A DNA stretch of 64,000 bases, taken from a virus. A program made the position numbers and the translations under genes. Positions 21,230-64,000 of the stretch are shown here, piece after piece. The notes beneath the pieces were generated by a model that saw only the letters and a program-made list of their open reading frames with translations, searched no databases and had not been told where the DNA came from. Numbering within the stretch: position 1 is the stretch's first letter; every line of letters begins with the position of its first letter. The stretch is taken from IMG/VR virus record IMGVR_UViG_3300044646_003076, one strand, 5' to 3'.

Positions 21230-21783
21230 GAAAAGTTAAACAAGCTAAAGATCCATACACTTCAACCGAAATTCTAGAACAACTAGCGACCGATGAGGAT
21301 TCTAGTGTTCGTTGGAATGTAGTACGTAATCCAAACACACCACCAGAAGCTCTAGAACAATTAGCGACTGACAAGAATCCTGGGGTTCGTTGGGAGGTAG
21401 CGAGAAATCCAAACACACCACCAGAAGCTCTAGAACAATTAGCGACTGACAAGAATCCTGGGGTTCGTTGGGCAGTAGCACTACATCCAAACACCCCACC
21501 AACAACATTAGAACTTCTAGCGACCGATGATGATGATTATGTTCGTCAGGGAGTAGCACTACATCCAAACACCCCACCAAAAGCACTAGAAATTCTAGCG
21601 ACCGATATGGATTATCGTGTTCGTTGGCGGGTAGCAAGATTACCAAATATACAACCAAAATTATTAGAAATCTTAGCTACCGATGAGAATCCATATGTTC
21701 GTATATGGCTAGCACAAAATCCAAACACACCACGCTACATCAAAAAGTATCTTAAAATTCAAGAACAACTTCAAAAATTATGA
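21226..21783 (+). CDS. LRV/HEAT-like repeat protein B (6 repeats plus C-cap)
   Basis: 78-nt in-frame repeats; ATGA overlap with A. Confidence 0.92.
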   Translation: MRKVKQAKDPYTSTEILEQLATDEDSSVRWNVVRNPNTPPEALEQLATDKNPGVRWEVARNPNTPPEALEQLATDKNPGVRWAVALHPNTPPTTLELLATDDDDYVRQGVALHPNTPPKALEILATDMDYRVRWRVARLPNIQPKLLEILATDENPYVRIWLAQNPNTPRYIKKYLKIQEQLQKL

Positions 21784-21911
21784 CGACTTCCTTTGATGAT
21801 AACGATCCACCACAGCTTAACTTTGATAAATTATACGAACGAATAAAACAACAAAGAATGGAAGAACTCTTTTCTGAGCCCTATGATGGTGATATGGAAG
21901 AAGAGGATTGA
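21780..21911 (+). CDS. Small acidic hypothetical protein (43 aa)
   Basis: Start supplied by the ATGA overlap at the end of repeat gene B. Confidence 0.5.
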   Translation: MTTSFDDNDPPQLNFDKLYERIKQQRMEELFSEPYDGDMEEED

Positions 21912-21919
21912 ATTTATTC

Positions 21920-21992
21920 GCTCGTCTAGCCATCCGGTGAAGGCAACGAACTCATAATTCGTAGGAGGTGGGTTCGATCCCCACGACGAGCA
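21920..21992 (+). tRNA. tRNA with CAU anticodon (elongator Met or lysidine-type Ile2)
   Basis: Acceptor GCTCGTC/GACGAGC; anticodon arm ACGAA-CTCATAA-TTCGT; T arm GTGGG-TTCGATC-CCCAC; G1:C72 pair excludes initiator type. Confidence 0.9.
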
Positions 21993-21996
21993 TTGT

Positions 21997-22054
21997 GTGA
22001 CAGTCAATAAACTGTACACAAATATCAACACTCTCAAGTGTTGTATGCTACTAT
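21997..22054 (+). promoter_or_regulatory. Dyad element plus extended -10 promoter
   Basis: GTGACAGT-N5-AACTGTACAC then TGCTACTAT. Confidence 0.6.
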
Positions 22055-22111
22055 AAAAACGGTCAAAAGACCAATTGTTCCTTTATCTATTTTTTCTCAT
22101 AATCGTTTAAA

Positions 22112-22339
22112 ATGACAAGAAAACCGTTTGATGGCAAGTTCAGTAAGGATATTCATATTCTTACTCGTGCAACTAAAGGAGAAGTCTATCTCGGCGACTA
22201 TCCCAAAATCATCAAAAAACTTAAACGTTATTTTACTGAGCAATATTCTGATATCCAATTCTATAATGAACCCGAATCCGATAATTTTTATTTATTGGAT
22301 CTGATTCGGAATGAACTAGAAATTGATGTAGTGGTGTGA
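22112..22339 (+). CDS. Conserved cyanophage hypothetical protein
   Basis: FSKDIHILTRATKGEVYL...LKRYF. Confidence 0.65.
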   Translation: MTRKPFDGKFSKDIHILTRATKGEVYLGDYPKIIKKLKRYFTEQYSDIQFYNEPESDNFYLLDLIRNELEIDVVV

Positions 22340-22342
22340 ATT

Positions 22343-22774
22343 ATGGATACCAATCTTTTTTGGAATCTGAGAGGTAATTATTCAGAACGTAAAGAAAAAC
22401 TTTCTAAGATGTCTCGTGAGTATTTGGAAGCCTCTGTCTTAGATTCATGTTATAATAACTTCATCACCAATATAGAGGAAAATAATACTACTGGCGTAAA
22501 GAGAATTCCTTATATTGGATGGTATTGGCGCCATGTAACATTTAGCGATTTTACCAATATCCGTATTGGAGATTGTGGTCAATTTGTTGGATTTATGGAG
22601 AGCAATAAGTGGGATCATCCAGAAAGATATCTTACCGAAGATGAGGGGTGTAGTATTATTGCATTTATTGATAATGCAATGAGAATTCAAGAGGGAGCTA
22701 GTTCCGAGACAACTCTTGATATCGTTCTTCAAAATCTATGGGATTATATGCAAACTTTGAAAATTGAAAGATGA
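22343..22774 (+). CDS. Hypothetical protein
   Basis: Packed ORF. Confidence 0.6.
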   Translation: MDTNLFWNLRGNYSERKEKLSKMSREYLEASVLDSCYNNFITNIEENNTTGVKRIPYIGWYWRHVTFSDFTNIRIGDCGQFVGFMESNKWDHPERYLTEDEGCSIIAFIDNAMRIQEGASSETTLDIVLQNLWDYMQTLKIER

Positions 22775-23135
22775 CTAATCTATTTGTAGGTGAATCCGAT
22801 TTCCGAGAATGGTTGGAAGCTAATAATTTTTGGATTTATTCCTCATATAAAGATGATCCATGGAATGAATGTAATTGGTATGCGTGTCGGCGGGTTGCCC
22901 CGGAAAGCCGAAGATGTGATTGTAATGATGAAAACCCGGATTACAATTGGTAATCAGGCCATATCATTCCACCTATTTTACTAATTCTAGAACTGCTACA
23001 TTTGAAATTATCGGGAAAACAAAAGGAATTTGGTATAATCTAACAGCTTATTCTATCAATATTGATGATGTTCCTGAAAAAATAGACGAAGTTTCAGAAT
23101 CACTTGCTCGCGCCTGGGAGGCTCTTGTTCTATGA
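22771..23135 (+). pseudogene. Single gene apparently split by a -1 break at AAAACCC (22931-22937)
   Basis: ...RRCDCNDE then KPGLQLVIRPYH in the -1 frame joins ORFs 22771 and 22947. Confidence 0.55.
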
Positions 23136-23275
23136 TACCAGAATTAATGATTCTTGGATTCCTATTGATTATTGCTTCTTTTTCTGGTAACGGAAGTAGT
23201 TCAATATCTTTTGAAAATAAAAATAAGCCAAAAGGGCCACCACTAAAATTTAAAAAAATCACAAAGGAAAAATAA

Positions 23276-23563
23276 ATGAGTAACACATTACATGTCTATG
23301 CACAGTCAGCACCACATGACAGTGTTTTTATCTGTGGAACTAAAGAATCACTAGAAAAACTAAGAGAAACATTAGATAATATTCTTACTGAAGATCTTAA
23401 GTTTGGTGCTTATGATGAGTTTACTAATGATGGCGAGGGATATAACGTACATATTGATTTGTTATCTGAAGAGAAAATGGAGCAGATGGCCGTTCCCTAT
23501 AGTGATGAGATTTTCTGGAATAATGAATCCAATAAAACAAAAGTGTATCCTTGGTATCTTTGA
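23276..23563 (+). CDS. Hypothetical protein
   Basis: HDSVFICGTKESLEKLR...FTNDGEGY pattern; Shine-Dalgarno AAGGA upstream. Confidence 0.65.
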   Translation: MSNTLHVYAQSAPHDSVFICGTKESLEKLRETLDNILTEDLKFGAYDEFTNDGEGYNVHIDLLSEEKMEQMAVPYSDEIFWNNESNKTKVYPWYL

Positions 23564-23597
23564 ATAATAATCACCAACAAATAATGAATTTTGTATT

Positions 23598-23855
23598 ATG
23601 GATTACGGATTAACGCCATATTGTTTATCAAGAAATCCAAACACACCACCAAAAGCCCTAGAACAACTAGCGACCGATGAGTGGGGTCCTATTCGTTGTT
23701 GGGTAGCACTAAACCCAAACACTCCACCAACAACATTAAAACAACTAGCAACCGATGAGGAATGGTATGTTCGTTGGGGTGTAGCACGAAATCCAAATAC
23801 TCCACGCTATCTCAAGAAGTATCTTAAAATTCAAGAACATTTGGTGAGATTATGA
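23598..23855 (+). CDS. LRV/HEAT-like repeat protein C (2 repeats plus C-cap)
   Basis: 26-aa repeats; ends YLKKYLKIQEHLVRL. Confidence 0.88.
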   Translation: MDYGLTPYCLSRNPNTPPKALEQLATDEWGPIRCWVALNPNTPPTTLKQLATDEEWYVRWGVARNPNTPRYLKKYLKIQEHLVRL

Positions 23856-24409
23856 ACAAATTTGAACAAGCTAGAGATCCAAATACACCACAAGAAGAGT
23901 TAGAGCGTCTAGCTACTGATGATGAGTATCTGGTTCGTTGTGGTGTAGCACGAAATCCATCCACACCAACAAAAGCCCTAGAACAACTAGCGACTGATAA
24001 GTGTGGTAATGCTCGTGAAGGAGTAGCAGATAATCCAAACACTCCACCAGAAATCCTAGAACAATTAGCGACCGATGAGGATTATTGGGTTCGTTGGAGA
24101 GTAGCACATAATCCAAACACACCACCAAAAGCCCTAGAACAACTAGCGACCGATGAGGATTCTAGTGTTCGTTATTGGGTAGCAGAAAATCCAAACACAC
24201 CACCAAAAGCTCTAGAACAACTAGAGACCGATGAGAATTCTGATGTTCGTTGGAGTGTAGCAGATAATCCAAACACACCACCAAAAGCTCTAGAACAACT
24301 AGCGACCGATGAGAATTCTGATGTTCGTTGGAGTGTAGCAGATAATCCAAACACTCCACGCTATCTCAAAAAGTATCTTAAAATTCAAGAACATCTAGCT
24401 AAATTATGA
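23852..24409 (+). CDS. LRV/HEAT-like repeat protein D (6 repeats plus C-cap)
   Basis: MNKFEQARDPNTP N-cap; 78-nt repeats; ATGA overlap. Confidence 0.92.
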   Translation: MNKFEQARDPNTPQEELERLATDDEYLVRCGVARNPSTPTKALEQLATDKCGNAREGVADNPNTPPEILEQLATDEDYWVRWRVAHNPNTPPKALEQLATDEDSSVRYWVAENPNTPPKALEQLETDENSDVRWSVADNPNTPPKALEQLATDENSDVRWSVADNPNTPRYLKKYLKIQEHLAKL

Positions 24410-24726: not shown

Positions 24727-24737
24727 ATAGTTAAAAC

Positions 24738-24977
24738 GTGTATAATGGAAGAATGGACCGTTCAACTTTTTTACGCTACATAGGTAACATTTTTCTTATC
24801 GTTGGTTATTTCATTCTTCTTCATGTTGATATGACGGCTGGCCTTTTGATAAAATGCATCGGTGGTTTCTTGACTGTTCCGTTTGCTGTTAAATACAAAC
24901 TGTGGGATGTTGTCTTTATATGGGGCTTCTTCAGCTTTATTGAAATCGCCAAAATTATTGAATTGCTTACTAAATGA
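24738..24977 (+). CDS. Small membrane protein
   Basis: Multiple hydrophobic segments; TAAATA at 24724. Confidence 0.65.
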   Translation: MYNGRMDRSTFLRYIGNIFLIVGYFILLHVDMTAGLLIKCIGGFLTVPFAVKYKLWDVVFIWGFFSFIEIAKIIELLTK

Positions 24978-24980: not shown

Positions 24981-25778
24981 ATGTTAGCTAATAACTCAAT
25001 AGGAAATCTCGGGAGACTCGGCAATCAAATGTTTCAATATGCTGCTCTTAGAGGAATAGCGGTGGAACATAATTATGAGTATTGTCTTCCACCATTGAAT
25101 TTCATTGCAACTCAAGATCCTAATTGTGCAACTAGCGATTGCACTATTTTTGATTGTTTTATGTTACCCGAAGCACCAAGACGACTGCTTTCTGGACCGA
25201 TTCTAGAAGAATCTTCTTTTGAGTTTGACAATAATCTATGGAATTCGTGTCCTGATAACGTTTCTCTTTATGGTTATTTTCAAAGCGAAAAATACTTTAA
25301 CCATATAAAAGAGAACATAAGAAACTCTTTTCGGTTCAAAGAAACTTCTGAAATATCTTATGCTTCTAGTTTCTTTAATGAGGAATTCAATAATACCTCA
25401 GTGATCTCCTTACACATTAGAAGAGGAGATTATCTTAAATACACTCATCATCCAACTCTTCCGATGAGTTATTATGAAGACGCTCTTAGTCAGTTGCCTG
25501 ATGTTCCAGTTTTTGTTTTTTCGGATGATGTGAATTGGTGTAAACAAGAAGTGTCATTTCGTTCGGATAGATTTTATATTTCAGAATCTAACAGTACGGC
25601 AGTTGATCTTTATCTTCAATCCAGATGTAGTCATCATATTATTGCAAACAGTTCCTTTAGTTGGTGGGGAGCGTGGTTAGCTAAAAGTCAAAAAGTTATT
25701 GCACCGAAGCAATGGTTCGGACCACCACTAACACATAATACAAAAGATCTTTACTGTGAGGATTGGATTCAATGCTAA
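24981..25778 (+). CDS. Alpha-1,2-fucosyltransferase-like (GT11)
   Basis: GRLGNQMFQYA, GYFQSEKYF, LHIRRGDY, IIANSSFSWWGAWL. Confidence 0.92.
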   Translation: MLANNSIGNLGRLGNQMFQYAALRGIAVEHNYEYCLPPLNFIATQDPNCATSDCTIFDCFMLPEAPRRLLSGPILEESSFEFDNNLWNSCPDNVSLYGYFQSEKYFNHIKENIRNSFRFKETSEISYASSFFNEEFNNTSVISLHIRRGDYLKYTHHPTLPMSYYEDALSQLPDVPVFVFSDDVNWCKQEVSFRSDRFYISESNSTAVDLYLQSRCSHHIIANSSFSWWGAWLAKSQKVIAPKQWFGPPLTHNTKDLYCEDWIQC

Positions 25779-26389
25779 TTTCATTATCTGAAATGATAAC
25801 AAAATATAATATGAATATTCGGGGTGTTATTCATATTGGCGCTCATTATGGCGAAGAGGTTCCCGAATACATTAAAAATGGAATTTCTGAACTTCATCTG
25901 TTTGAACCTCTGTCGGAAAACTATAAAATTTTAAGGAATAATCTCCAAGACCTAAAGATTAATTGGGCAACTTATCACTGTGCATTGGGAAATAAAAACG
26001 AAAGAGTTACAATGTTTGTTAGTGATAACCAACAACAAAGTAGCTCAATTCTTTCACCGAAAGATCATCTAACACATCATCCAAATGTGAGATTTCCTAC
26101 AACGGAAGAAGTTTTAGTCACTACTTTGGACTCTCAAGAAATTGAAAATTGTAACTTCATTAATATGGATGTGCAGGGTTATGAGTTGGAAGTTCTTAAA
26201 GGTGCATCTAAAACTTTAGAACATGTTGAATATGTTTATTGTGAAGTCAATAGAGCCGAAGTTTATGAAAATAATGCTTTCGTAGAAGAGATTGATGAGT
26301 TCCTTTCTCAATACAATATGATCAGAGTGGAAACAGATTGGGCAGGAGAAATCTGGGGTGATGCACTTTATGTGAGAACCGAGAGATGA
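25763..26389 (+). CDS. FkbM-family SAM methyltransferase
   Basis: VIHIGAHYGEE, FEP, NMDVQGYELEVLKG. Confidence 0.9.
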   Translation: MDSMLISLSEMITKYNMNIRGVIHIGAHYGEEVPEYIKNGISELHLFEPLSENYKILRNNLQDLKINWATYHCALGNKNERVTMFVSDNQQQSSSILSPKDHLTHHPNVRFPTTEEVLVTTLDSQEIENCNFINMDVQGYELEVLKGASKTLEHVEYVYCEVNRAEVYENNAFVEEIDEFLSQYNMIRVETDWAGEIWGDALYVRTER

Positions 26390-27024
26390 AAACTTTAAAT
26401 GATTATTTTGATGAGATTTATTGTATTAATCTTGATAGACGAGTAGATCGTTGGAAACAAGTAGAACAAGAGTTTATTAAACATTCAATAACAGTTAATC
26501 GTTATTCTGCTATTGATGGTCAAGAACTCAATATGGGATTATTTTCATATTCAACAAACTTTGAGACTCCCGGACAATTAGCGTGTTTTATCTCACACTA
26601 CAATATCATAAAAACTGCAAGATATAAAAATCTTTCTTCTGTTCTTATTCTTGAAGATGATGTCGTATTTTCTGAAAATTTTGATTCTCAATTAGAGCAG
26701 AAGATGCCAGATGTTCCCGAAAATTGGGATATGCTTTTCTTTGGTGCCAATCATATTAGTGGTCCGATCCGAATCACAGATAATGTTTATAAGATGACAA
26801 GAGCTTATTCTGCACACTGTTATGCGATTAAGAATACGATGTTTGATATTCTTCTAGAACATCTTTGTCAATTCCGAGAACCTCTAGATGTCGTTTATGC
26901 TAATTTACAATCATCTATCAATTCTTATGTTCTTAATCCTCATTTAGTATGGCAGAATCCTGGATATTCTGATATCTGCGAACAGTCAGTAGATTATACA
27001 CACGTTCATAAAATTTCATTTTGA
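26386..27024 (+). CDS. Glycosyltransferase family 25
   Basis: CINLDRRVDRW, ACFISHY, LILEDD. Confidence 0.88.
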   Translation: MKTLNDYFDEIYCINLDRRVDRWKQVEQEFIKHSITVNRYSAIDGQELNMGLFSYSTNFETPGQLACFISHYNIIKTARYKNLSSVLILEDDVVFSENFDSQLEQKMPDVPENWDMLFFGANHISGPIRITDNVYKMTRAYSAHCYAIKNTMFDILLEHLCQFREPLDVVYANLQSSINSYVLNPHLVWQNPGYSDICEQSVDYTHVHKISF

Positions 27025-27671
27025 CTATGTACGATAACGTAACACTCGTTTTAACAAGTTGTGGAAGATTAGATCTTCTAGAACAAACTATCAATTCAAT
27101 TAGTAAAGGTGTATTGTATAATATTCCAACAAAAATTATTGTAGACGATTCTACAGACCCCGAAGTTTATAAAAATATCAAAAAAGCTTCTTATTTAAGA
27201 GGATGGAAGAAAATTCTCAATAAAGAAAAATTGGGACAAGCTGCTTCTATTGACAGTGCTTATGCTTATGTCAAGACCGATTATGTCTTCCATTGCGAAG
27301 ATGATTGGCATTTTGATGACTTTGATTTTGTTGGTCCATCATTGAGTATTCTGGAGAAATATGATAATCTGGTTCAAGTGACCTTCAGAAAAGATTCACC
27401 TCATCCTACACATGAAGAGATCTACGAAAAAGAGGAAAATCCTTTTAAGGTTCTGATTCCAGGATATAATGGGTGGCCAGGATTTACTTATAATCCAAAT
27501 ATCTTTCGTTTTTCTGCATATAAAAAATTGGGTTCTTGTGCTGGAATGTCTGAAAAAGATGTTGGAATCTTTTATAAAGATAATCAACTTTATACTGCTG
27601 CACTTGAGACTCGTGTTGTCTCTCATCTTGGTGATGGCAGACACGTTTATGATACAATTAGCGGAGTTTGA
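27021..27671 (+). CDS. Glycosyltransferase (GT-A fold)
   Basis: TSCGRLDLL, IIVDDS, FHCEDDW, HLGDGRH. Confidence 0.8.
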   Translation: MTMYDNVTLVLTSCGRLDLLEQTINSISKGVLYNIPTKIIVDDSTDPEVYKNIKKASYLRGWKKILNKEKLGQAASIDSAYAYVKTDYVFHCEDDWHFDDFDFVGPSLSILEKYDNLVQVTFRKDSPHPTHEEIYEKEENPFKVLIPGYNGWPGFTYNPNIFRFSAYKKLGSCAGMSEKDVGIFYKDNQLYTAALETRVVSHLGDGRHVYDTISGV

Positions 27672-27674
27672 ATT

Positions 27675-28430
27675 ATGAAAAAGGTTGCAGCCTTGATGAT
27701 GGTAAAAGATGAGATTGATATTATTGAACAAAATATTCACTATCTTTTAACTCAAAATCTTGATTTTGTGTGTGTCTATGATAACGGTTCAACCGATGGA
27801 ACACGACAGAAGTTAGACGACTTAGCTTATTTTTATGAAGAGGAATTATTGGTATTTGATGATCCAGAAACAGGATATTATCAATCAACGAAGATGAATA
27901 ATTGGGCAAACGAACTCTTTCAAGATGATGTAGATGTTGTTATTCCTATTGATGCTGATGAGATTTGGTACTCAAAGAATCCAAATTATACTCTAGGTGA
28001 AATCATAAGAAATACTGATGCAGATATTTTTGTTGCAGATTCGGTGGATTATATTCCAACTGTTTTTGATGACTTTAATGAGAGAAATTTTATTCAAAGA
28101 ATGAAACAACGAAAAGTCAATTCAAATTCTTTTTCAGCCGTTGCATTTAATTATAGTCCGGGATTTTATCTTGAAATGGGTAACCATGATGTGCATAATC
28201 ATTCGGGAAAAAGAGTTCACGATAAAATTGGTATTCGGCATTATCAATATCGTACTTTTGACCAATTTGCAAAAAAAGTTCGCAATGGAAAGAAAGCATA
28301 TGATGCAACAACTCTTCCTGATTTTATGGGAAGCCACTGGAGAAAACTGGGTGCGATGGATGATTCTGAACTCAGAAAATACTGGGTGGATTATTGTTCG
28401 GTAGAAACTGTTGAGGATCCAGTTGTATGA
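27675..28430 (+). CDS. Glycosyltransferase family 2-like
   Basis: MVKDEIDII, YDNGSTDGT, IDADE. Confidence 0.85.
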   Translation: MKKVAALMMVKDEIDIIEQNIHYLLTQNLDFVCVYDNGSTDGTRQKLDDLAYFYEEELLVFDDPETGYYQSTKMNNWANELFQDDVDVVIPIDADEIWYSKNPNYTLGEIIRNTDADIFVADSVDYIPTVFDDFNERNFIQRMKQRKVNSNSFSAVAFNYSPGFYLEMGNHDVHNHSGKRVHDKIGIRHYQYRTFDQFAKKVRNGKKAYDATTLPDFMGSHWRKLGAMDDSELRKYWVDYCSVETVEDPVV

Positions 28431-29128
28431 CTAGATTATCAATAGCTATTCCAACATATAATTATCATGGTAAAGGTGAACAGTTTCTTGACGATCTTCT
28501 AAGAACTATCCAGATACAAACTTTTAAGGATTTTGAGGTAGTTATATCAGACCATAGCGAAGACGAAAATATCAAAAGCAAGGCAGAGGAGTATTCAGAT
28601 TTTTTCTCCGTCAAATACCTTACAAACACTGAAAAGCGTGGTAACAGTCCTGCTAACTTGAATCATGCAATTTCTCACTGCACTGGAGAAATTATCAAGC
28701 CTATGTTTCAAGATGATTTCTTTTATGATGATGAGGCATTAGCCAAGATTTATTATAATCTAGCTGGAGATCGCAATAAATTCTGGCTTCTTAACGGAAC
28801 TAATCATACGAGAGATAACGGCCACACATTTTTCTGGAATCTTTTTCCGAGATTTAATCCGAATCTTCTAACTGGAGTAAACACAATAAGTTCACCATCT
28901 GTTGTTGCATATAAGAGAGAAGTTGAAATTAAATTTGATGAAGATTTGGTTTACTTGATGGATATTGATTTTTATTATAATATGAGAGAAACTTATGGTG
29001 AACCAATTTATTATGATGATATCTTGGTAACAAATAGAATTCATCCTGATAGCATCTCTAGCACATTAAAAAACAGAGATGAATTACTTCAAAAAGAATC
29101 CATTTATTGTAAAGAAAAATATGATTGA
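28427..29128 (+). CDS. Glycosyltransferase family 2
   Basis: SIAIPTY, EVVISDHS, FQDD. Confidence 0.88.
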   Translation: MTRLSIAIPTYNYHGKGEQFLDDLLRTIQIQTFKDFEVVISDHSEDENIKSKAEEYSDFFSVKYLTNTEKRGNSPANLNHAISHCTGEIIKPMFQDDFFYDDEALAKIYYNLAGDRNKFWLLNGTNHTRDNGHTFFWNLFPRFNPNLLTGVNTISSPSVVAYKREVEIKFDEDLVYLMDIDFYYNMRETYGEPIYYDDILVTNRIHPDSISSTLKNRDELLQKESIYCKEKYD

Positions 29129-29705
29129 TTTTATTGTACCTAGTATTGGGCGAGAAACAATTACTCGTTCATTAAATTCGTTGATCCAACAAACTGATTC
29201 AGATTGGAGATGTTTTGTTGGATTTGATGGTTTATCAAAAGATCAGATTGATTCCGATCTTCTGATTGATGATTCAAGAATTCACTATCTCTATTTGAAA
29301 GAAAAATTGGGAACCTCATCTTTTCATGGTAATGCTGGAAGAGTGAGAAATAAGATTATTGAATCTATTGACACTCCATCTGAATGGATTGGATTTCTGG
29401 ATGACGATGACTCTCTTTCATCATATTATGTTGAAATTTTAAAACGACAGATGACATTAGATGAATCAGATTGTTATGTGTTTCGTATGAATAATAATGG
29501 TGTAATTATTCCATCTTATGATATGAATGAACTGCGGCAGAATCATGTCGGTATTTCCTTTTGTCTTAAAAGTTCATTCTTGAGACAAAAAAATCTTCAA
29601 TTCCAGAATGATAATGCCGAAGATTTTCTGTTTTTACAGAACATTAAAGAACAAGATGGTGTTATTAACATTCTTCCTTATGTCGGTTATTTTGTGGGAA
29701 TCTAA
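29079..29705 (+). CDS. Glycosyltransferase family 2-like (true start probably ~29120)
   Basis: FIVPSIGR, SLIQQTDSDW, FLDDDD, AEDFLFL. Confidence 0.8.
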   Translation: MNYFKKNPFIVKKNMIDFIVPSIGRETITRSLNSLIQQTDSDWRCFVGFDGLSKDQIDSDLLIDDSRIHYLYLKEKLGTSSFHGNAGRVRNKIIESIDTPSEWIGFLDDDDSLSSYYVEILKRQMTLDESDCYVFRMNNNGVIIPSYDMNELRQNHVGISFCLKSSFLRQKNLQFQNDNAEDFLFLQNIKEQDGVINILPYVGYFVGI

Positions 29706-30493
29706 TGGACAGAAACAAAGCATCATATAAACTTCAGGGATTTGGTCCGGTTTATTATATTAATCTTGATGATCAAGAAGATCGGAGAACTTTTATGGAA
29801 GCTCAGTTTAACTACTGGGAGATAAAAAACTATGAGAGAATTTCGGCCTTTGATGGTAGAAACAGTGATTTAAGTGAATATATTGTTGGAAAATATCCAG
29901 AAGGAATCACAACAGCGGAACTTGGTTGTACTCTTTCACATTTGAAAGCTATTAAACATTGGTATGAGACTTCTACGAGTCCTTATGCTATTATTTGTGA
30001 AGATGATGGTCTTATTGACATTTCGAAATATTGGAATTTTACATGGCAAGAATTTATCTCTAGAGTTCCTTATTGTTGGGATTGTCTGCAGCTGGCAATA
30101 ATCTCAACGGGGAATATTTCGGTGAATATTCATAATCGCTTTGTCAACAGTTTTTCAACTGCGGTTTATTGTATTAACCGTCGTTATGCCGAAAAGTTGA
30201 TTCATTTTCATTGTAGAGGTGATAAGTTCATCTTGGATCAAAATATTAAACCGAGAGCTGTTGCCGACGATTTAATCTATAATGGTGGTCTGACATTTTC
30301 AACACCTTTATTTCTTTATGAGTTGCGTCTTGGTAGTTCTATTCACGATGAACATATTGAGGTGTTTCATAAAAATTCTTATAATGGAGTTCTTGCTTTC
30401 TGGCAGAATGAAGGAAAGGAACTAACAGTAGATCAGATCACTAATTTTGATCCTTACTTCAATAAGATCAGTAATCCAACTCCGACCGAGTGA
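29705..30493 (+). CDS. Glycosyltransferase family 25-like
   Basis: YINLD...RR, GCTLSHLKAI, IICEDD. Confidence 0.85.
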   Translation: MDRNKASYKLQGFGPVYYINLDDQEDRRTFMEAQFNYWEIKNYERISAFDGRNSDLSEYIVGKYPEGITTAELGCTLSHLKAIKHWYETSTSPYAIICEDDGLIDISKYWNFTWQEFISRVPYCWDCLQLAIISTGNISVNIHNRFVNSFSTAVYCINRRYAEKLIHFHCRGDKFILDQNIKPRAVADDLIYNGGLTFSTPLFLYELRLGSSIHDEHIEVFHKNSYNGVLAFWQNEGKELTVDQITNFDPYFNKISNPTPTE

Positions 30494-30679: not shown

Positions 30680-31147
30680 ATGCTTTTTAACAAAACAATT
30701 TCAACTCTTCTTGCTTGTGGTATGGTTGGAGCCGCAACGATGACTCCCACAATTTCACAAGCAATTTCAGTATCTACCTACATCCCCGAGCAATACACTC
30801 AGGATTCTAAATGGGAGAAAAGATTTACACCACAACAACCAACTTATAAAGTTCCTCTCGCTAGTGTTTATTTTGGTCAAGCAAGTTGGTATGGTCCTGG
30901 ATTTTATGGTAACCGAACTGCCAATGGTGAAGTGTATCGTCCAGGAAGAATGACAGCGGCACATAAATATCTGCCATTCGGAACTCGCGTAAGAGTAACT
31001 AACCGTTATAATGGTAGAAGTGCTATCGTTAGAATCAATGATCGTGGTCCCTATGTGGGTGGTCGTGTTATTGATCTTTCTGAAGCTGCAGCTAATGTTC
31101 TAGGTGTTGATGGTGTTGCATCTGTAAAACTGGAAGTGTTGGATTGA
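30680..31147 (+). CDS. rlpA: RlpA-like lytic transglycosylase (DPBB domain)
   Basis: GQASWYG, TANGE, TAAHKYLPFGT, RINDRGP, RVIDLS. Confidence 0.93.
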   Translation: MLFNKTISTLLACGMVGAATMTPTISQAISVSTYIPEQYTQDSKWEKRFTPQQPTYKVPLASVYFGQASWYGPGFYGNRTANGEVYRPGRMTAAHKYLPFGTRVRVTNRYNGRSAIVRINDRGPYVGGRVIDLSEAAANVLGVDGVASVKLEVLD

Positions 31148-31148
31148 G

Positions 31149-31604
31149 ATGTTTTATCAAATAGAAGACGTAAAATTTATTGAACCTGATTATTATCAGG
31201 TCTTTACTGAAAACCGAAACAAATTTAATCAATTCAATGGTTATCGCAACAACTGCGCTAACACCGTAAAAACTTATCTTTCTCTTATTGGTCTGGATAC
31301 ATCAAAAGTGACTGCCTGGGCGGATACTGTTCGCAATCTTGGTCAAGTTCTTTATGATCCAGATAAACTTCAAGAAGGTGATGTTGTTGCAATGGGCCGC
31401 CCCGGCAATACTTGGCATGTGGGAGTTTATTTGGGAGAAGGAAAGATTCTTCATCAATCTGCGATGAGAGGTTATGTTGTTGGAGCATTCAAAGATCTCA
31501 ATGCCTTCATTCGTGATCGCCGAGGCTTTTATATCGTAAGACCTTATAATTCTTATAATGACATCTTACAAGGTCAATTTTACTTATTTCCCCAACTAAC
31601 ATAA
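31149..31604 (+). CDS. NlpC/P60-like cysteine amidase/peptidase
   Basis: NNCANTV, LQEGDVV, WHVGVYLGEGKILHQ. Confidence 0.75.
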   Translation: MFYQIEDVKFIEPDYYQVFTENRNKFNQFNGYRNNCANTVKTYLSLIGLDTSKVTAWADTVRNLGQVLYDPDKLQEGDVVAMGRPGNTWHVGVYLGEGKILHQSAMRGYVVGAFKDLNAFIRDRRGFYIVRPYNSYNDILQGQFYLFPQLT

Positions 31605-33934: not shown

Positions 33935-34147
33935 ATGGCGCTATCAAATTCTGTTAATGAGAGTCTAGATGAGGCTCAATCACAACTTAAGAATGCATTG
34001 GCCTATGCTGCTCGTCAAGAAGCACCTTATGTAATGGTCGGTATCGCTAGAATTATCCATGAAATTGATACGATTAAAAAGACAGATTCTGCGCATGAGC
34101 AACTTCAAAAATTTATTAATCAAATTAATCCTGACATTCAACTTTGA
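33935..34147 (+). CDS. Conserved cyanophage hypothetical protein
   Basis: MALSNSVNESLDEAQSQLKNALAYAARQE. Confidence 0.7.
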   Translation: MALSNSVNESLDEAQSQLKNALAYAARQEAPYVMVGIARIIHEIDTIKKTDSAHEQLQKFINQINPDIQL

Positions 34148-34569
34148 TTCTTTTTCTTCTACCTATCCGTATTCGTGAAGAGATGACACTAAATCCAAAC
34201 ACACCAACAAAAGCTCTAGAACAACTAGCGACCGATGAGGATTCTTGGGTTCGTTGTTGTGTAGCACTAAACCCAAACACACCACCAGAAGCTCTAGGAC
34301 AATTAGCGACTGATGAAAATCCTAATGTTCGTTATTGGGTAGCAGAAAACCCAAACACACCACCAGAAGCTCTAGGACAATTAGCGACTGATAAGAATCC
34401 TTATGTTCGTTATTGGGTAGCAGAAAACCCAAACACACCAATAAAAATCCTAGAACAACTAGCTACCGATAAGGATTCTCTGGTTCGTCGTGGTGTTGTA
34501 CAAAATCCAAACGCACCTCACTATCTCAAGAAGTATCTTAAAATTCAAGAACAACTGGCGATGTTATGA
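34144..34569 (+). CDS. LRV/HEAT-like repeat protein E (4 repeats plus C-cap)
   Basis: 78-nt repeats; TTGA overlap with the upstream stop. Confidence 0.88.
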   Translation: MILFLLPIRIREEMTLNPNTPTKALEQLATDEDSWVRCCVALNPNTPPEALGQLATDENPNVRYWVAENPNTPPEALGQLATDKNPYVRYWVAENPNTPIKILEQLATDKDSLVRRGVVQNPNAPHYLKKYLKIQEQLAML

Positions 34570-35051
34570 ACAAATTTGAACAAGCTGGAGATCCAAACAC
34601 TCAACCAAAAACCCTAGAACAACTAGCGACTGATGAGGAATATTTGGTTCGTTGTTGTGTAGCAAATAATCCAAACTCTTCACCCAAAACTCTAGAGCTT
34701 CTAGCGACCGATGAGGATTATCGTGTCCGTATTGTTGTAGCAGAAAATCTAAACACTCCACTAGAAATCCTAGAACAACTGGCAACCGATGAGAATTCTG
34801 GTGTTCGTTATAATATAGCAAATAATCCAAACACACCACCAAAAGCCCTAGAACAACTAGCGACCGATAGGTATTATGAGGTTCGTTGGAGGGTAGCATG
34901 TAATCAAAACATTCCACCAAAAGCTCTAGAACAACTAGCGACCGATGGGAATTGGGATGTTCGTTGTGAAGTAGCACTAAACCCAAACACACCACATTAC
35001 ATCAAAAAGTATATTAAAATTAAACAATACCTATCATGTCTACATTTTTAA
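34566..35051 (+). CDS. LRV/HEAT-like repeat protein F (5 repeats plus C-cap)
   Basis: MNKFEQAGDPNT N-cap; 3' end overlaps the glutaredoxin start. Confidence 0.9.
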   Translation: MNKFEQAGDPNTQPKTLEQLATDEEYLVRCCVANNPNSSPKTLELLATDEDYRVRIVVAENLNTPLEILEQLATDENSGVRYNIANNPNTPPKALEQLATDRYYEVRWRVACNQNIPPKALEQLATDGNWDVRCEVALNPNTPHYIKKYIKIKQYLSCLHF

Positions 35052-36909: not shown

Positions 36910-37094
36910 GTGAAGGATTTAATAAACTAAGAGTTAATATTAACAAAGACGAGTTCAATAAGATTATCCGAAAATATAAAAACGCAAAACGTTATATGAA
37001 ATCTGGAATTTTTGCTGTTAGAACGATGAACGGAACAGAAGAATATATTTCTGGTCTTCTCAAAGAAACCGACAATCCTTCACTAATGAATTAA
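36906..37094 (+). CDS. Hypothetical protein
   Basis: MSEGF...YMKSGIFAVRTMNGTE. Confidence 0.65.
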   Translation: MSEGFNKLRVNINKDEFNKIIRKYKNAKRYMKSGIFAVRTMNGTEEYISGLLKETDNPSLMN

Positions 37095-37421
37095 ATGGGT
37101 AAGCATTATCTACTGAATCTTTATGGTTGTGATCCACTTCTTCTTAATGATATGGATTTTGTTGTTAAGATGTTGTCTGATGCAGCTTTATTTTGTAATG
37201 CGACTATATTAAATGTTGCATCGCATAAGTTTGAGCCTTGTGGTCTTACAGTAGTTTTAATGCTTGCCGAATCGCATATTAGTATGCATACATGGCCCGA
37301 TAGACATACCGCAGCGTGTGATGTTTATACTTGTTCTAAGACCGATCCAAAGATTGGATGTGATTTTATTATTGAAAAACTTCGTCCAATTAAAAACGAT
37401 TTGATCTTTATTCAGAGATAA
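37095..37421 (+). CDS. speD: S-adenosylmethionine decarboxylase-like proenzyme
   Basis: GKHYLLNLYGC; MLAESHISMHTWP self-cleavage site; DVYTC. Confidence 0.92.
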   Translation: MGKHYLLNLYGCDPLLLNDMDFVVKMLSDAALFCNATILNVASHKFEPCGLTVVLMLAESHISMHTWPDRHTAACDVYTCSKTDPKIGCDFIIEKLRPIKNDLIFIQR

Positions 37422-37440
37422 CTTATTGAGCTATTTTATT

Positions 37441-37998
37441 ATGAACGAACTTGACCAGGCTATAGATCCTAACACACCATCAACAATATTAGAACAACTA
37501 GCGACCGATGAGGATTGTGGTGTTCGTTGTTGTGTAGCACAAAATCCAAACACTTCATCAGAAATTCTAGAACAACTAGCAACTAATGATGAATGGTATG
37601 TTCGTTATTATGTATCATATAATCCAAACACATCACCGACAACATTAGAAGTTCTAGCGACAGATGAGGAATATTGGGTTCGTCGTGATGTAGCGTGTCA
37701 TTCAAACACACCACCAACAACATTAGAACAACTAGCGACCGATGTGTATTCTAATGTTCGTCATGGTGTAGCAGATAATCCAAATACTCCACCAAAAGTC
37801 TTAGAAATTCTAGCGACCGATGAGGAATATTGTGTTCGTTGGAGAGTAGCAGATAATCCAAACACACCACCAAAAATCTTAGAACAACTAGCGACCGATG
37901 ATGATTGGGATGTTCGTTGGAGGGTAGCAGGAAATCCAAACACACCACACTATATCAAGAAGTATCTTAAAATTCAAGAACATTTGGCTAGATTATGA
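37441..37998 (+). CDS. LRV/HEAT-like repeat protein G (6 repeats plus C-cap)
   Basis: 78-nt repeats; ends YIKKYLKIQEHLARL. Confidence 0.92.
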   Translation: MNELDQAIDPNTPSTILEQLATDEDCGVRCCVAQNPNTSSEILEQLATNDEWYVRYYVSYNPNTSPTTLEVLATDEEYWVRRDVACHSNTPPTTLEQLATDVYSNVRHGVADNPNTPPKVLEILATDEEYCVRWRVADNPNTPPKILEQLATDDDWDVRWRVAGNPNTPHYIKKYLKIQEHLARL

Positions 37999-38255
37999 AC
38001 AAAAAGAAACTAATACTTCATCTTAATAGTATTCAAAATCTTATTGATACCATAAGACTTGAATTAGAAGAGGAAGAAAATGTTATTGATTCTCAACCAA
38101 ATAATACCATAAGTATTCCAGATTTTATTAGATCCGCTAATGTTGATTTAGAAGATGATGTTCAATATGCAGAAGAATCTGATGACGGACCACCAATACT
38201 GTTGAATAGTAAGGCTGAGCGGGATTTTTATGAAAGATTTAGATTAGGAGATTGA
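37995..38255 (+). CDS. Hypothetical protein
   Basis: Start via ATGA overlap with G; acidic. Confidence 0.6.
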   Translation: MNKKKLILHLNSIQNLIDTIRLELEEEENVIDSQPNNTISIPDFIRSANVDLEDDVQYAEESDDGPPILLNSKAERDFYERFRLGD

Positions 38256-38306
38256 TTGAGATATTATATTTGTGTTTTATGAAACTTGACTGTATAATAA
38301 ATTATT

Positions 38307-38600
38307 ATGATCAAATCGTATCTTGACCAACAACAGAATAATTGGAGAGAATATTGTAATAATTTTCTTTTAGCCGAAAATCCAAACACTTCACCTGAAA
38401 TCCTAGAACAACTAGCGTCTGATGAGAGTTTTTATGTTCGTCGCTGTGTAGCGAGTCATCCAAACACACCACCAAAAGTCCTAGAACAACTAGCGACCGA
38501 TGAGGAATATTATGTTCGTTGGAGTGTAGCACTAAATCCAAACACACCACGCTATCTCAAAAAATATCTTAAAATTCAAGAACATCTAAAAACATTATAA
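38307..38600 (+). CDS. LRV/HEAT-like repeat protein H (2 repeats plus C-cap)
   Basis: 26-aa repeats; ends YLKKYLKIQEHLKTL. Confidence 0.88.
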   Translation: MIKSYLDQQQNNWREYCNNFLLAENPNTSPEILEQLASDESFYVRRCVASHPNTPPKVLEQLATDEEYYVRWSVALNPNTPRYLKKYLKIQEHLKTL

Positions 38601-38625
38601 ACACATCAATCAGGAGAACGTATCA

Positions 38626-39378
38626 ATGATCGGTAAACTACTAGAATCTATTAATAAGCTTCTGCCAAAAAAACAAAATAGCAAAAGTGATCCAGAATTA
38701 CCAAAAGTAAAACTCGTCTCCATTACTCGGGGTGTTGGAGATCTTATGAATACTAGCGCCCAGGAAGTTATTTCATATATTGCCAGAGTGAGTAATCCAA
38801 ATAATCAACTCAATTTTGATACAGCAGAGGGTCTTATTCGTTATTGTATTAAAAACAAACATGTGAGCATTTTTGAACATGCTTATATGACTCTTGAGAT
38901 TAATACAACGAGAGCTATTGCAGCTCAGATTTTAAGACATAGAAGTTTCACATTTCAGGAATATAGTTTACGGTATATGGACATAACCGCTCTTTCCGAT
39001 AATCCATTAATTCCTGAACTAAGACGACAAGATAATAAGAATCGGCAAAATTCTATTGATGATTTTTCCGAAGATGAGCAATTAAAAATGCAAAAAGAGA
39101 TTCAGCAGTATTTTGATACTGGTATGAAGCTTTATGAAAAATTACTCTCAAACGGTGTCGCAAAAGAGTGTGCAAGATTTATTCTGCCATTATCAACTCC
39201 AACAAGAATTTATATGACGGGTAACGTAAGATCCTGGATAACTTATATTGCTCTTAGAGAAAAAAATGGAACTCAGAAGGAACATAAGGACATCGCCAAG
39301 GCATGTAAAGAAATCTTTGCGGAGCAGTTTCCAACCTGTTATGAGGCTCTCGGAGGAGACGAAGAATGGGCTATCTAG
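38626..39378 (+). CDS. thyX: Flavin-dependent thymidylate synthase
   Basis: RHRSFTFQEYSLRY (RHRx7SxR) motif; SIFEH; ARFILP. Confidence 0.96.
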   Translation: MIGKLLESINKLLPKKQNSKSDPELPKVKLVSITRGVGDLMNTSAQEVISYIARVSNPNNQLNFDTAEGLIRYCIKNKHVSIFEHAYMTLEINTTRAIAAQILRHRSFTFQEYSLRYMDITALSDNPLIPELRRQDNKNRQNSIDDFSEDEQLKMQKEIQQYFDTGMKLYEKLLSNGVAKECARFILPLSTPTRIYMTGNVRSWITYIALREKNGTQKEHKDIAKACKEIFAEQFPTCYEALGGDEEWAI

Positions 39379-61478: not shown

Positions 61479-61480
61479 GT

Positions 61481-62275
61481 ATGGCATTTTCACAAGACGA
61501 TGTATGTGTATCTCATCAATTAGTTGTTGGTGATGGTTTTCCTGATTTTTTGGGTGTCGGCGAAGAAAAGATAAGAGGATCGGCCTATGTTGAAGGTCCG
61601 ATGGTTATTGGTGATCCTGATATTTTTTCAAATGTTTCTGCAACACTTATCGTTGGTCCCAATATTAACGTAGACTCGGAACCATCTTTTGTTGGTGGTA
61701 ATGGTATTTGTGGTAATAATTATAGTCCATATTCACTAGCGGTTTCCGGTGATGCTGTTATTTTTGATAATCTCAGTGTTAATGGTAGAGTGGATGTTGG
61801 TACTCATCTTGTCGCTCAAGGAGAAGTGATTTCTAGATGCGGTAAACATGTTCTTTCGGCTAAGAAGAATTTTGATATTGAACATCCATCAAAACCCGGT
61901 TGGAGATTAAGACACACCTGCCCCGAAGCACCATCTAATGATGTTTATATTAGAGGAACACTTAAAAATTCAAATGAAATCTTATTACCAAAATACTGGA
62001 AAGATTTTGTTGATATTGAATCAATAACAGTCAATATCACACCAATTAAAACCCTTCAAAATATTACAGTAAAAGATATAACAGAAGAAAGAATTCTTTT
62101 GCTTTCCAATTTTTCAATGCCTATTCATTGTTTTTATCATGTCTTTGCTGAAAGAAAAGATGGTGAAAAATTGATTCCAGAATATAGTGGTGATAGTCCA
62201 GCCGATTATCCCGGTAATAATAACGAATATTCAATTTCGGGTTATCACTACGACGTAAAAAATAATCATGGTTGA
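61481..62275 (+). CDS. Tail-associated protein, paralogue 1
   Basis: KKNFDIEHPSKPGWRLRHTCPEAP...VYIRG domain. Confidence 0.65.
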   Translation: MAFSQDDVCVSHQLVVGDGFPDFLGVGEEKIRGSAYVEGPMVIGDPDIFSNVSATLIVGPNINVDSEPSFVGGNGICGNNYSPYSLAVSGDAVIFDNLSVNGRVDVGTHLVAQGEVISRCGKHVLSAKKNFDIEHPSKPGWRLRHTCPEAPSNDVYIRGTLKNSNEILLPKYWKDFVDIESITVNITPIKTLQNITVKDITEERILLLSNFSMPIHCFYHVFAERKDGEKLIPEYSGDSPADYPGNNNEYSISGYHYDVKNNHG

Positions 62276-63032
62276 AACTACAAATAATATTCTAATCACT
62301 AGAGAATATGGCGAAAAGGATTGTTCTGATCCGGTTATAACAGGAATTCCATCAAATCGTTTTGATTTTGTGTTGAAGCCATATAATGCCGATTTAGAAG
62401 ATATATCTTCAGAATTAAATATTGATCCTCCTTGTGATCTTTGGTATTATTATAACATGAAGGTGGGTTCACTAAAGGCATTAGAAGATGTTAATGTTGA
62501 TGGAGAAGTTACTGCCGTTGGTGAAGTGTCATCCAATAATGGAATTCATGTTCTGTCAAATAAGAAAAATTTACCCTTTGATATGCCTCATCCTAATAAA
62601 AAAGGATGGAGATTAAGGCATGTTTGTATTGAAGGTCCCGAAATCGCTGTTTATTGTAGAGGTGAAATAAATGAAACCGGAATTATTGATTTGCCTTCTT
62701 TCTGGGACGGTTTGGTAAATCTTGATGATATGACCATAAATATCACACCTATTGGTCATTGGCAAGAATTATTCGTTGAACATATCAATAAAAATAAAAA
62801 ACAAGTCATCATTAAAAATAATAACGGTACCAAAATTCGGGCAAATTATCATATTGTTGCAAGAAGATTAGATGATGATCTTATTGTAGAATATCAAGGT
62901 GAAAATTATACAGATTATCCAAAAGGAAATGAAGGATATTCTTTTAATTATGAACATTCTTATGTTGAAAATTTAATCAAAGAACAAATTAAGAGAGAAA
63001 TAAAAAATGCAAGTAACAAGAGAAGTCAGTGA
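62268..63032 (+). CDS. Tail-associated protein, paralogue 2
   Basis: KKNLPFDMPHPNKKGWRLRHVCIEGPE.AVYCRG domain. Confidence 0.65.
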   Translation: MVETTNNILITREYGEKDCSDPVITGIPSNRFDFVLKPYNADLEDISSELNIDPPCDLWYYYNMKVGSLKALEDVNVDGEVTAVGEVSSNNGIHVLSNKKNLPFDMPHPNKKGWRLRHVCIEGPEIAVYCRGEINETGIIDLPSFWDGLVNLDDMTINITPIGHWQELFVEHINKNKKQVIIKNNNGTKIRANYHIVARRLDDDLIVEYQGENYTDYPKGNEGYSFNYEHSYVENLIKEQIKREIKNASNKRSQ

Positions 63033-63162
63033 CGATCTTATCGCACTACAAGAAGATATCGCGGCTCATTTCTGTGAAGATAACTTTCCTATGAGTGGTG
63101 AATTGTATTGGACTTTAGTTGAATCTATTGCCACTGCAAAGCTATCGGAAATTACATCTTGA
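63007..63162 (+). CDS. Small cyanophage hypothetical protein (not in ORF track)
   Basis: LQEDIAAHFCEDNFPMSGELYWTLVESIATAKL. Confidence 0.65.
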   Translation: MQVTREVSDDLIALQEDIAAHFCEDNFPMSGELYWTLVESIATAKLSEITS

Positions 63163-63218
63163 CCACTTTACGAACTGTCACTAGGTAACTCCAAAATCCA
63201 TCAGGATGTGTTAAGATT
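63160..63218 (+). promoter_or_regulatory. Dyad element plus extended -10 promoter
   Basis: TGACCA-N7-AACTGTCAC then TGTGTTAAGAT. Confidence 0.55.
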
Positions 63219-63241
63219 GATTCATCTTCGTATTTGAAGTA

Positions 63242-63439
63242 ATGAAAATCTCAAAAACAAATATTCAAGCTCAATATAATGAACTATTAGATCAAGGTCT
63301 AGAGGATTGGGAAGCTAGAACTACAATTATCAATGATATGATTTCATTGGAACCCACATCAGAACATTTTGTGGGAAATCCTGGAGATTCTGAATATTAT
63401 TTCACAATCCAAACCATTTGGAATCTATGTAATCTATGA
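63242..63439 (+). CDS. Hypothetical protein
   Basis: Packed ORF. Confidence 0.55.
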   Translation: MKISKTNIQAQYNELLDQGLEDWEARTTIINDMISLEPTSEHFVGNPGDSEYYFTIQTIWNLCNL

Positions 63440-63645
63440 GACCCGAAACTCGTGAAGCTATGGAGAATCTCTTTGGTGCAAAATGGAATGTACCAAAAGC
63501 GGCGGATTATTGTAATCTCACCAACAAAGAGTGTAAAATTGTCTTTAATGAATATTGTCGCCTAAATCCTCCAACATATGTTCAAGAAAGTTCTTTTGAT
63601 CTACTTGTGTTATCTCATTCTGATGATGTGAAAGATGAATCTTGA
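63436..63645 (+). CDS. Conserved cyanophage hypothetical protein
   Basis: MRPETREAMENLF.AKWNVPKAA..CNLT.KE.KI.F. Confidence 0.72.
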   Translation: MRPETREAMENLFGAKWNVPKAADYCNLTNKECKIVFNEYCRLNPPTYVQESSFDLLVLSHSDDVKDES

Positions 63646-64000
63646 TAATAAAAGCGATATCATACATGATGACATTGAAAGTCTTTCATTGGATGATAGA
63701 ATTAATCTGGCATATAATCCAAACACCCCACCAACAACATTAGATCAACTAGCTACTAATGAGCATTATTGGGTTCGTTATTGGGTAGCACAACATCCAA
63801 ACACACCACCAAAAGCCCTAGAACAACTAGCGACCGATGAGGAATATTATGGTATTCGTCGTGAAGTAGCACAAAACCGAAACACACCACCAAAAGTCCT
63901 AGAACAACTAGCGACCGATGAGGAATATTATGGTATTCGTCGTGAAGTAGCACAAAACCGAAACACACCACCAAAAGTCCTAGAACAACTAGCGACCGAT
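63635..64000 (+). CDS. LRV/HEAT-like repeat protein I (runs off the window; not in ORF track)
   Basis: Hand translation MNLDNKSD...LAYNPNTPPTTLDQLATNEHYWVRYWVAQHPNTPPKALEQLATDEEYYGIRREVAQN...; includes 81-nt/27-aa variant repeats. Confidence 0.88.
   Translation, partial: MNLDNKSDIIHDDIESLSLDDRINLAYNPNTPPTTLDQLATNEHYWVRYWVAQHPNTPPKALEQLATDEEYYGIRREVAQNRNTPPKVLEQLATDEEYYGIRREVAQNRNTPPKVLEQLATD

Follow-up and report, generated by a model that had tools for sequence, protein, structure and literature searches.

Can short DNA strings that recur in changing combinations along a phage genome be read as modules that recombination shuffles at fixed crossover motifs? This question is raised by a 64,000-nt stretch of viral DNA (the window), bases 81046-145045 of the 179,526-bp IMG/VR record IMGVR_UViG_3300044646_003076, which holds a set of small genes built from 78-nt LRV repeats. 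An earlier reading of the letters alone, referred to here as the sequence-only reading, had proposed that left and right half-repeats reassort around an invariant GTTCGT core, with GTTCGT, GTAGCA and a scaffold of about 48 nt as crossover points. Our data support one part of that proposal, since mosaics are indeed built between repeats at a scale of less than one unit to two units, but not the other, namely free reassortment of half-modules directed by GTTCGT. We consider it likely that the LRV genes are a dispersed family diversified by ectopic gene-conversion patches together with point substitution, and that the patches end anywhere in the unit. Throughout, coordinates are those of the window unless marked as genome coordinates.

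Recurring strings belong to one dispersed repeat family

We found that the record contains 24 LRV genes with about 98 in-register units, distributed over both strands and the whole 179.5 kb, and that nine of these genes fall in the window. The repeat unit comprises 26 residues (78 nt) with a consensus close to N-P-N-T-P-P-K-A-L-E-Q-L-A-T-D-x-x-x-x-V-R-x-x-V-A-x, and six window genes match PF01816 (LRV) with E values of 1e-16 to 2e-44 and 59-147 bits, relative to a curated cut-off of 21.6 bits. Judged by sequence, the phage proteins are members of the LRV repeat family. They range from 72 to 233 aa, carry their own N- and C-terminal caps and are without any other domain; all of the genes are in frame with their caps intact. 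The LRV genes of the window are the following.

20810..21229, plus strand: LRV gene Q6, 139 aa, 4 units; PF01816 E=9.6e-21
21226..21783, plus strand: LRV gene Q7, 185 aa, 6 units; PF01816 E=2.6e-39; holds DEDSS-VR at 21292; start overlaps the Q6 stop (ATGA)
23598..23855, plus strand: LRV gene Q8, 85 aa, 2 units; open reading frame
23852..24409, plus strand: LRV gene Q9, 185 aa, 6 units; PF01816 E=2e-44; folded as an alpha-solenoid
34144..34569, plus strand: LRV gene Q10, 141 aa, 4 units; tandem duplication of unit 2 as unit 3 or the reverse (94 nt, 3 mismatches)
34566..35051, plus strand: LRV gene Q11, 161 aa, 5 units; PF01816 E=1.6e-30
37426..37998, plus strand: LRV gene Q12, 190 aa, 6 units; PF01816 E=9.7e-36
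38307..38600, plus strand: LRV gene Q13, 97 aa, 2 units; PF01816 E=2.5e-16
63635..64000, continuing past the window, plus strand: LRV gene Q14, 233 aa in the genome; two 27-residue variant units

Scaffold codons of the 98 units are near-fixed in this AT-rich genome, synonymous sites included: Arg21 is CGT in 93/94, Val20 GTT in 89/91, Val24 GTA in 86/92, Ala25 GCA in 84/88 and Ala13 GCG in 68/92. Amino-acid entropy does not exceed 0.6 bits in the strictly conserved core (columns 3, 4, 9, 12-15, 20, 21, 24 and 25, numbered along the unit), whereas semi-variable scaffold columns (1, 6-8 and 11) have values of at most 2.2 bits. Seven columns (16-19, 22, 23 and 26) are hypervariable, with entropies of 2.0-3.4 bits, and Y, W, C, S, R, G and D are abundant there.

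Every string listed in the sequence-only reading was recovered where it had been placed, and all of them fall inside the 78-nt LRV repeats. These are GATGAGGATTCTAGTGTTCGTT (DEDSS-VR) at 21292 and 24152; GTTCGTTATTGGGTAGCA (VRYWVA) at 24167, 34327, 34405 and 63773; GTTCGTTGTTGTGTAGCA (VRCCVA) at 34249, 34647 and 37522; GTTCGTTGGAG(A/G)GTAGCA (VRWRVA) at 24089, 34881, 37834 and 37912; and a 39-nt scaffold string attributed to 'genes B and E' at 21343, 21421 and 34363. None of the listed strings is expected in a shuffled window, but this null is inappropriate because all of the strings belong to one repeat family. We therefore give their recurrence against a null that keeps codon-column composition and treats columns as independent, over the 98 units of the genome.

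DEDSS left half: observed 7, expected 0.54
YW right half: observed 10, expected 4.6
CC right half: observed 5, expected 2.4
WR right half: observed 4, expected 2.0

The long DEDSS left-half match is far above chance, while the two-codon right halves recur at only about twice the expectation from column composition. The core described as invariant is approximately so, GTTCGT being present in 85/98 units and GTAGCA in 76/98. All seven DEDSS units also share the upstream scaffold, including its synonymous markers. Four DEDSS right halves (TAT-TGT, TAT-TGG, TGT-TGG and TAT-AGG) are linked by single-base steps, and the fifth, TGG-AAT of the Q7 unit with the string at 21292, lies several bases apart from the other four.

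Short patches are shared between distant LRV genes

One sample yielded three IMG/VR contigs that run collinear with this genome over a backbone that is 92-97% identical; they are treated here as a close relative. We applied a GENECONV-like scan to the 24 LRV genes of this genome and 37 of the relative, in which all gene pairs were aligned in register, each possible unit offset was tried and the caps served as terminators. Tracts were scored by per-base log-odds of identity by descent versus the column-specific background identity, and five column-shuffled sets provided the null. Ninety-two tracts scored 14 or more, compared to a mean of 1.0 in the nulls, and 159 scored 12 or more, compared to 6. 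The 92 tracts divide into 21 within this genome, 27 within the relative, 23 non-syntenic between both, 12 within one gene and 9 syntenic.

Most of these tracts have the form of internal patches. Among the 70 non-syntenic tracts with both flanks, 64 show 1.5% divergence inside and 32-34% in each 60-nt flank, where the background is 28.5%. Tracts have a median length of 58 nt, and their partner genes, at distances of 12-118 kb, are on opposite strands in 7/21 pairs. Internal patches whose partners are distant and on opposite strands argue for non-reciprocal copying rather than crossover. Four tracts that touch the window genes illustrate the range.

21274-21313 (Q7), identical to 24134-24173 (Q9) and to genome 50567-50606 (Q3, minus strand): 40-nt exact tract of upstream scaffold, DEDSS and VR; both sides differ
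21331-21381, repeated at 21409-21459, common to 34351-34401 (Q10): 51-nt tract, 2 mismatches; score 13.8, just below the strict threshold
24111-24313 (Q9) and 64035-64237 (Q14, beyond the window end): 203-nt tract, 6 mismatches; 40 kb apart
34707-34814 (Q11) and genome 50164-50271 (Q2, opposite strand): 108-nt tract, 0 mismatches; 65 kb apart, about 25% divergence on both sides; the clearest conversion patch

Several of the six mismatches in the 203-nt tract are single-base changes in hypervariable codons, and the remainder are at scaffold positions. Two matches of the sequence-only reading are borne out by the scan: the 40-nt exact tract covers the DEDSS left half of 21292 and 24152 together with its upstream scaffold, and the scaffold shared by 'genes B and E' is the 51-nt tract. 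The matches of VRYWVA at 24167 and 34327 and of VRWRVA at 24089 and 37834 are borderline tracts of 55-64 nt with 3 mismatches, and VRYWVA at 34327 and 34405 is a tandem duplicate. The scan found no tract in common among VRYWVA at 63773, the three VRCCVA copies, and VRWRVA at 34881 and 37912. For the three VRCCVA copies and VRYWVA at 63773, which lie outside any shared tract, the outcome is the one that the sequence-only reading had itself named as speaking against shuffling.

Linkage between polymorphic sites declines with distance (Spearman -0.08 in the genome, -0.12 once the relative is included and -0.22 when only scaffold sites are used). No correlation as low as that observed occurred in 2000 permutations of site position, and linkage reaches zero at about 60 nt, that is, within less than one unit; the scaffold sites taken by themselves behave in the same way. 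Columns 19 and 22, and likewise columns 23 and 26, are statistically unlinked despite their 6-nt spacing.

Patch ends and the GTTCGT core

We asked whether the half-repeats could nonetheless be discrete, freely reassorting modules whose crossovers favour GTTCGT, GTAGCA and the 48-nt scaffold, and we consider this unlikely. Tract ends were compared with simulated tracts that had uniformly placed true ends and the same segmentation as the data. Between the two variable patches, in the interval from column 19 to column 22, right ends number 7 versus 6.6 expected and left ends 3 versus 6.2, so that GTTCGT does not stand out as a preferred crossover. The core itself is not constant across lineages: all 18 units of L005 have GTTCGC, as do most units of L010 and L011, and column 24 is mostly GTT outside the lineage studied here, which yields GTTGCA. 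Neither motif is therefore a conserved DNA signal. GTTCGT and GTAGCA look like junctions because constrained codons lie between the positions where differences show.

The halves do not reassort freely either. Across 101 pairs of units that share a left half, 43% also have identical right halves (background 2%) and 13% have right halves one base apart (background 5%), a strong linkage that contradicts free exchange. Some observations are consistent with exchange near the core. Pairs with the same left half and right halves differing by at least 3 nt number 32 versus 17 expected (P=0.015, permutation), and pairs with the same left and an unrelated right half share the upstream 45 nt (7.5 vs 10.5 differences) but not the downstream 45 nt; this excess, with its shared upstream flank, indicates that some tracts do end near the core. 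The Q7 gene and the syntenic gene of the relative provide one such junction, as their identity runs through DENPY-VR and stops at column 22, and right ends are somewhat enriched just beyond it, a point that we take up below. The converse comparison gives a different result. The 370 pairs with the same right half and different left halves have flanks at background (downstream, 13.8 vs 14.5 differences; 1.6% vs 1.3% near-identical), and right halves, which had been read as shared modules, are mostly recurrences of a small alphabet.

These data amount to a correction of how such strings are read. Invariant cores mimic crossover sites and two-codon matches mimic modules, and a position-specific null or a flank test removes both impressions.

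Turnover of LRV genes between relatives

Synteny with the close relative is kept across every LRV locus, and yet the repeat units turn over very fast. Only 7/98 units have a counterpart at least 93% identical in the relative, and the median best match is 86.5%. Syntenic LRV genes vary in how many units they have and may be fused or split; they also contain blocks that have been replaced, with sequence that is found again in a second gene of that genome.

Two further observations concern the repertoire of the relative. Its contig G002 (L028) carries at 36917-39136 an LRV gene of 739 aa, beside the syntenic Q13 gene and without counterpart in this genome, which is an extreme expansion of unit number. 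Contig G001 contains, at about 52875-113317, approximately 60 kb without a megablast match in this genome and with many further LRV genes; this stretch may be missing from the genome studied here, which is rated 83% complete, or may be an insertion in the relative.

Scaffold codons are nearly uniform inside each genome and different between lineages. At scaffold columns 2, 9, 12, 13, 21 and 24, this genome and the close relative use CCA, CTA, CTA, GCG, CGT and GTA; a contig with a more distant backbone (only about 65% identical) has CCC, TTA, CTG, GCT, CGT and GTT; and a further contig uses CCC, CTA, CTT, GCC, CGC and GTT. At the level of sequence, lineage-specific synonymous codons in the scaffold indicate concerted evolution.

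Could the mosaics have been produced by assembly, if short reads of a mixed population were joined, within the repeats, across strains or paralogues? Both sequences are metagenomic contigs, and exact repeats 40-108 nt long can mislead assemblers. We nevertheless regard this origin as distinctly improbable. False joins are at odds with LRV genes that are all in frame with intact caps and with flanking synteny at all loci; three LRV genes are identical in contigs L007 and L008, which come from two independent samples; and patches between opposite-strand genes 65 kb apart would require double switches. Lineage-specific scaffold codons and the decay of linkage, both present in several independent contigs, are not explained by assembly.

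Point substitution at hypervariable codons

Mismatches inside the tracts comprise 92 non-synonymous and 30 synonymous changes. Hypervariable codons inside tracts account for 53 mismatched bases, about 50 of them non-synonymous versus 3 synonymous. These are mostly single-base codon changes (TAT/TGT, TGT/TGG, AGT/GGT, GAT/GGT), and few codons differ at 2-3 bases. Across all units, dN is 0.88 for the variable columns, compared to a dS of 0.34 for the scaffold. We infer that diversifying selection drives these substitutions.

Point substitution might be thought sufficient by itself, with duplication followed by convergent, saturating mutation of a few codons in a small alphabet and no recombination at all. 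This would account for right halves that recur at only about twice chance in background flanks, for the lack of linkage across 6 nt at columns 19/22 and 23/26, and for the single-base steps that join many variants. However, it cannot give 64 near-identical internal patches within flanks of about 30% divergence in genes up to 118 kb apart, nor linkage at scaffold sites that decays with distance, nor chimeric genes and altered unit numbers in a relative whose backbone is 92-97% identical. We regard it as very improbable; as a complete explanation it is refuted, and point mutation stands as one of two components.

Targeted hypermutation that rewrites the variable codons, for example by a diversity-generating retroelement, is extremely improbable: it would suit a variation limited to fixed codons and NNY codons whose third base is almost always T (about 300 NNT vs 3 NNC), but no reverse transcriptase (PF00078) match was found in the 83%-complete genome, TGG, GAA, GGA, AGA and CTA are common at variable columns and misfit the NNT/NNC products of one AAY template, T-to-C synonymous changes are as rare at scaffold NNT codons so that an AT-biased mutation spectrum accounts for the third base, no template repeat was apparent (a formal template search was not made), and we know of no retroelement with about 100 targets in 24 genes. 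The scarcity of NNC was also considered as a mutational signature of the variable codons and was rejected, since scaffold NNT codons are equally T (GAT 88/90, GTT 89/91, CGT 93/94).

Proposed mechanism

Taken as the likely explanation, ectopic gene conversion combined with point substitution would operate as follows. Short patches, typically 40-200 nt (median near 58), would be copied non-reciprocally between units of scattered genes, with ends anywhere in the unit. Unequal exchange would change unit number and fuse genes. Patch copying would homogenise the scaffold within a lineage, and variable patches would travel with the adjacent scaffold. Single-base, mostly non-synonymous substitutions would build up in the hypervariable codons, drawing on the small alphabet of Y, W, C, S, R, G and D. 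The genome encodes a RecA/UvsX-like gene at genome 65940-66671, and the phage's own UvsX/RecA-type machinery would perform the copying.

Several points weigh against this explanation. Tract right ends are over-represented in columns 22-25, just after the right patch (29 vs 13.7 expected); we attribute this excess to fast substitution at columns 23 and 26 and to the non-independence of tracts, but a crossover preference near GTAGCA may be its source. Separate recent expansions could equally give lineage-specific scaffold codons. The excess of dN over dS is modest (ratio about 1.6-2.6) and rests on saturated sites and small counts. Finally, this genome and its relative are both metagenome assemblies, and part of the mosaicism could be strain mixing in assembly.

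Predicted fold and binding face of the LRV proteins

We next consider what the hypervariable columns might do. AlphaFold predicts Q9, from its single sequence, as a regular solenoid of alternating 7- and 9-residue helices (mean pLDDT 94.3, pTM 0.84). The second helix of the model spans columns 18-26, with columns 18, 19, 22, 23 and 26 on one helical face and columns 16-17 in the preceding loop. The model suggests that the hypervariable columns form a continuous surface, which is probably ligand-binding. Since the variable columns make up one predicted patch, the 'modules' are its two halves, and the motifs GTTCGT and GTAGCA encode buried Val-Arg and Val-Ala residues that lie between these halves. 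The LRV proteins would bind variable targets, probably host proteins.

The LRV protein structure 1LRV is the sole sequence match in PDB (phmmer E=3.3e-9) and the top Foldseek match. The alphaRep artificial binders rank after it in the fold search, with query-normalised TM-scores of about 0.61-0.72.

Individual units show two further features. All five VRCCVA units of the genome, including those at 34249, 34647 and 37522, directly follow the N-terminal cap (Fisher p=6e-4) and place a cysteine pair on the variable face. This was rejected as a general positional rule, as only 1/4 of such units in the close relative hold that position. Q14 contains two tandem 27-residue units (63800-63960) with an additional residue ahead of the core (EEYYG-IR-RE), and the unit therefore tolerates an insertion or deletion in the variable loop.

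Genomic context

The record has 35% G+C and the gene content of a T4-like myovirus, including a baseplate hub, tail proteins, an RNA ligase and a nicotinamide phosphoribosyltransferase. By protein search, a tail protein is 54% identical to those of the freshwater Synechococcus phages B3 and B23. No psbA was found in the genome, and a megablast search of a 5.5-kb structural region against GenBank phages gave no match. IMG/VR labels the whole record 'provirus', whereas its gene content is that of a lytic T4-like phage; flanking bacterial DNA was not noticed in the window.

LRV genes frequently occur as pairs that overlap stop to start at ATGA, at 21226, 23852 and 34566 in the window and in six more pairs in the genome. 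The second gene of each overlapping pair starts with the cap MNK(F/L)EQA. The sequence of these junctions suggests translational coupling and a cassette-like gene unit.

Relatives of the LRV proteins in databases are many, nearly all of them singletons at 90% clustering, and unnamed. A tblastn search of one LRV protein against GenBank phages gave a single weak match only (Moorella phage, 31%), and a literature search on LRV repeats in phages and on HEAT-repeat families in cyanophages found nothing relevant.

Two neighbouring gene groups are of separate interest. Directly after an LRV gene pair, eight consecutive genes at 24981-30493 match the glycosyltransferase families GT11, GT25 (two genes) and GT2 (four genes) and an FkbM-type methyltransferase, and by their sequence resemble a glycan-modification cluster carried by the phage. 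A DPBB_1 (RlpA-like lytic transglycosylase) gene with an N-terminal hydrophobic leader adjoins an NlpC/P60 peptidase gene at 30680-31604; both are separate from an endolysin-like gene at 2458-3741.

Meaning and comparison with known systems

About 6% of this T4-like genome encodes small solenoid proteins, and their predicted binding face changes approximately ten times as fast as the backbone, probably through patch copying between paralogues together with point substitution. We hypothesized, tentatively and with more doubt than confidence, that the LRV set is a self-diversifying repertoire. Conversion would keep about 100 near-identical 48-nt scaffolds, along which the recombination machinery would continually copy 40-200-nt patches, so that new contact patches rich in Tyr, Trp, Cys and Arg would arise in each lineage and perhaps in each burst. 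The products would be anticipatory inhibitors or adaptors directed at host proteins that vary, for instance those of defence systems. Should proteins of host defence or takeover prove to be the targets, the family would represent nature's equivalent of engineered repeat-protein libraries. It would also offer a tractable model of concerted evolution, with a scaffold that is homogenised and contact residues that diversify.

The nearest structural likeness is to 1LRV, the LRV protein of Azotobacter vinelandii (PF01816, PF25591), which shares the repeat family, the solenoid of alternating short helices and the D-x-x-x-x-V-R-x-x-V-A signature. Unlike 1LRV, the phage family has a 26-residue period, consists of small capped proteins and includes 24 paralogues with hypervariable positions.

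A functional likeness is offered by alphaRep libraries, in which positions 18, 19, 22, 23, 26 and 30 are randomised and contact the target, and in which crystal structures show this surface touching targets (PMC3754942). The variability of the phage units lies on the matching helix face (columns 16-19, 22, 23 and 26), and the number of repeats between the caps is variable in both. The alphaRep proteins differ in being man-made, with 31-residue repeats from which Cys is excluded, whereas the phage family is natural and rich in Cys, Trp and Tyr. By this analogy and the predicted fold, the phage LRV proteins may act like alphaRep-type binders.

Within the T4 superfamily, the nearest published precedent is that of the gp38 adhesins and distal tail-fibre genes of T-even phages, where conserved motifs alternate with hypervariable segments and chimeras form by homologous exchange. 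According to PMC3157838 (citing Tetart et al. 1996, 1998), hypervariable segments between glycine-rich motifs are shuffled by recombination in or near the motifs. That exchange takes place between alleles of one virion gene across phages, whereas in the family described here the partners are about 100 paralogous units, spread over 24 non-structural genes within a single genome, and the patches appear to be non-reciprocal and without a preferred motif.

A broader likeness is to multigene families that are diversified by segmental gene conversion and evolve in concert, such as the antigenic-variation cassettes of bacteria and protozoa, the NLR/LRR clusters of plants and the assembly of lamprey VLR. 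Common to these families and the phage genes are short donor patches copied into paralogues, a homogenised framework and hypervariable contact residues. Unlike those families, the phage LRV set has no expression site, silent cassette archive or somatic assembly, and all of its copies have the appearance of intact genes that a lytic phage expresses. Retroelements and tail-fibre module swaps are known routes to diversity in the receptor-binding proteins of phages; the LRV family looks like a third diversification route, one that acts on non-structural proteins.

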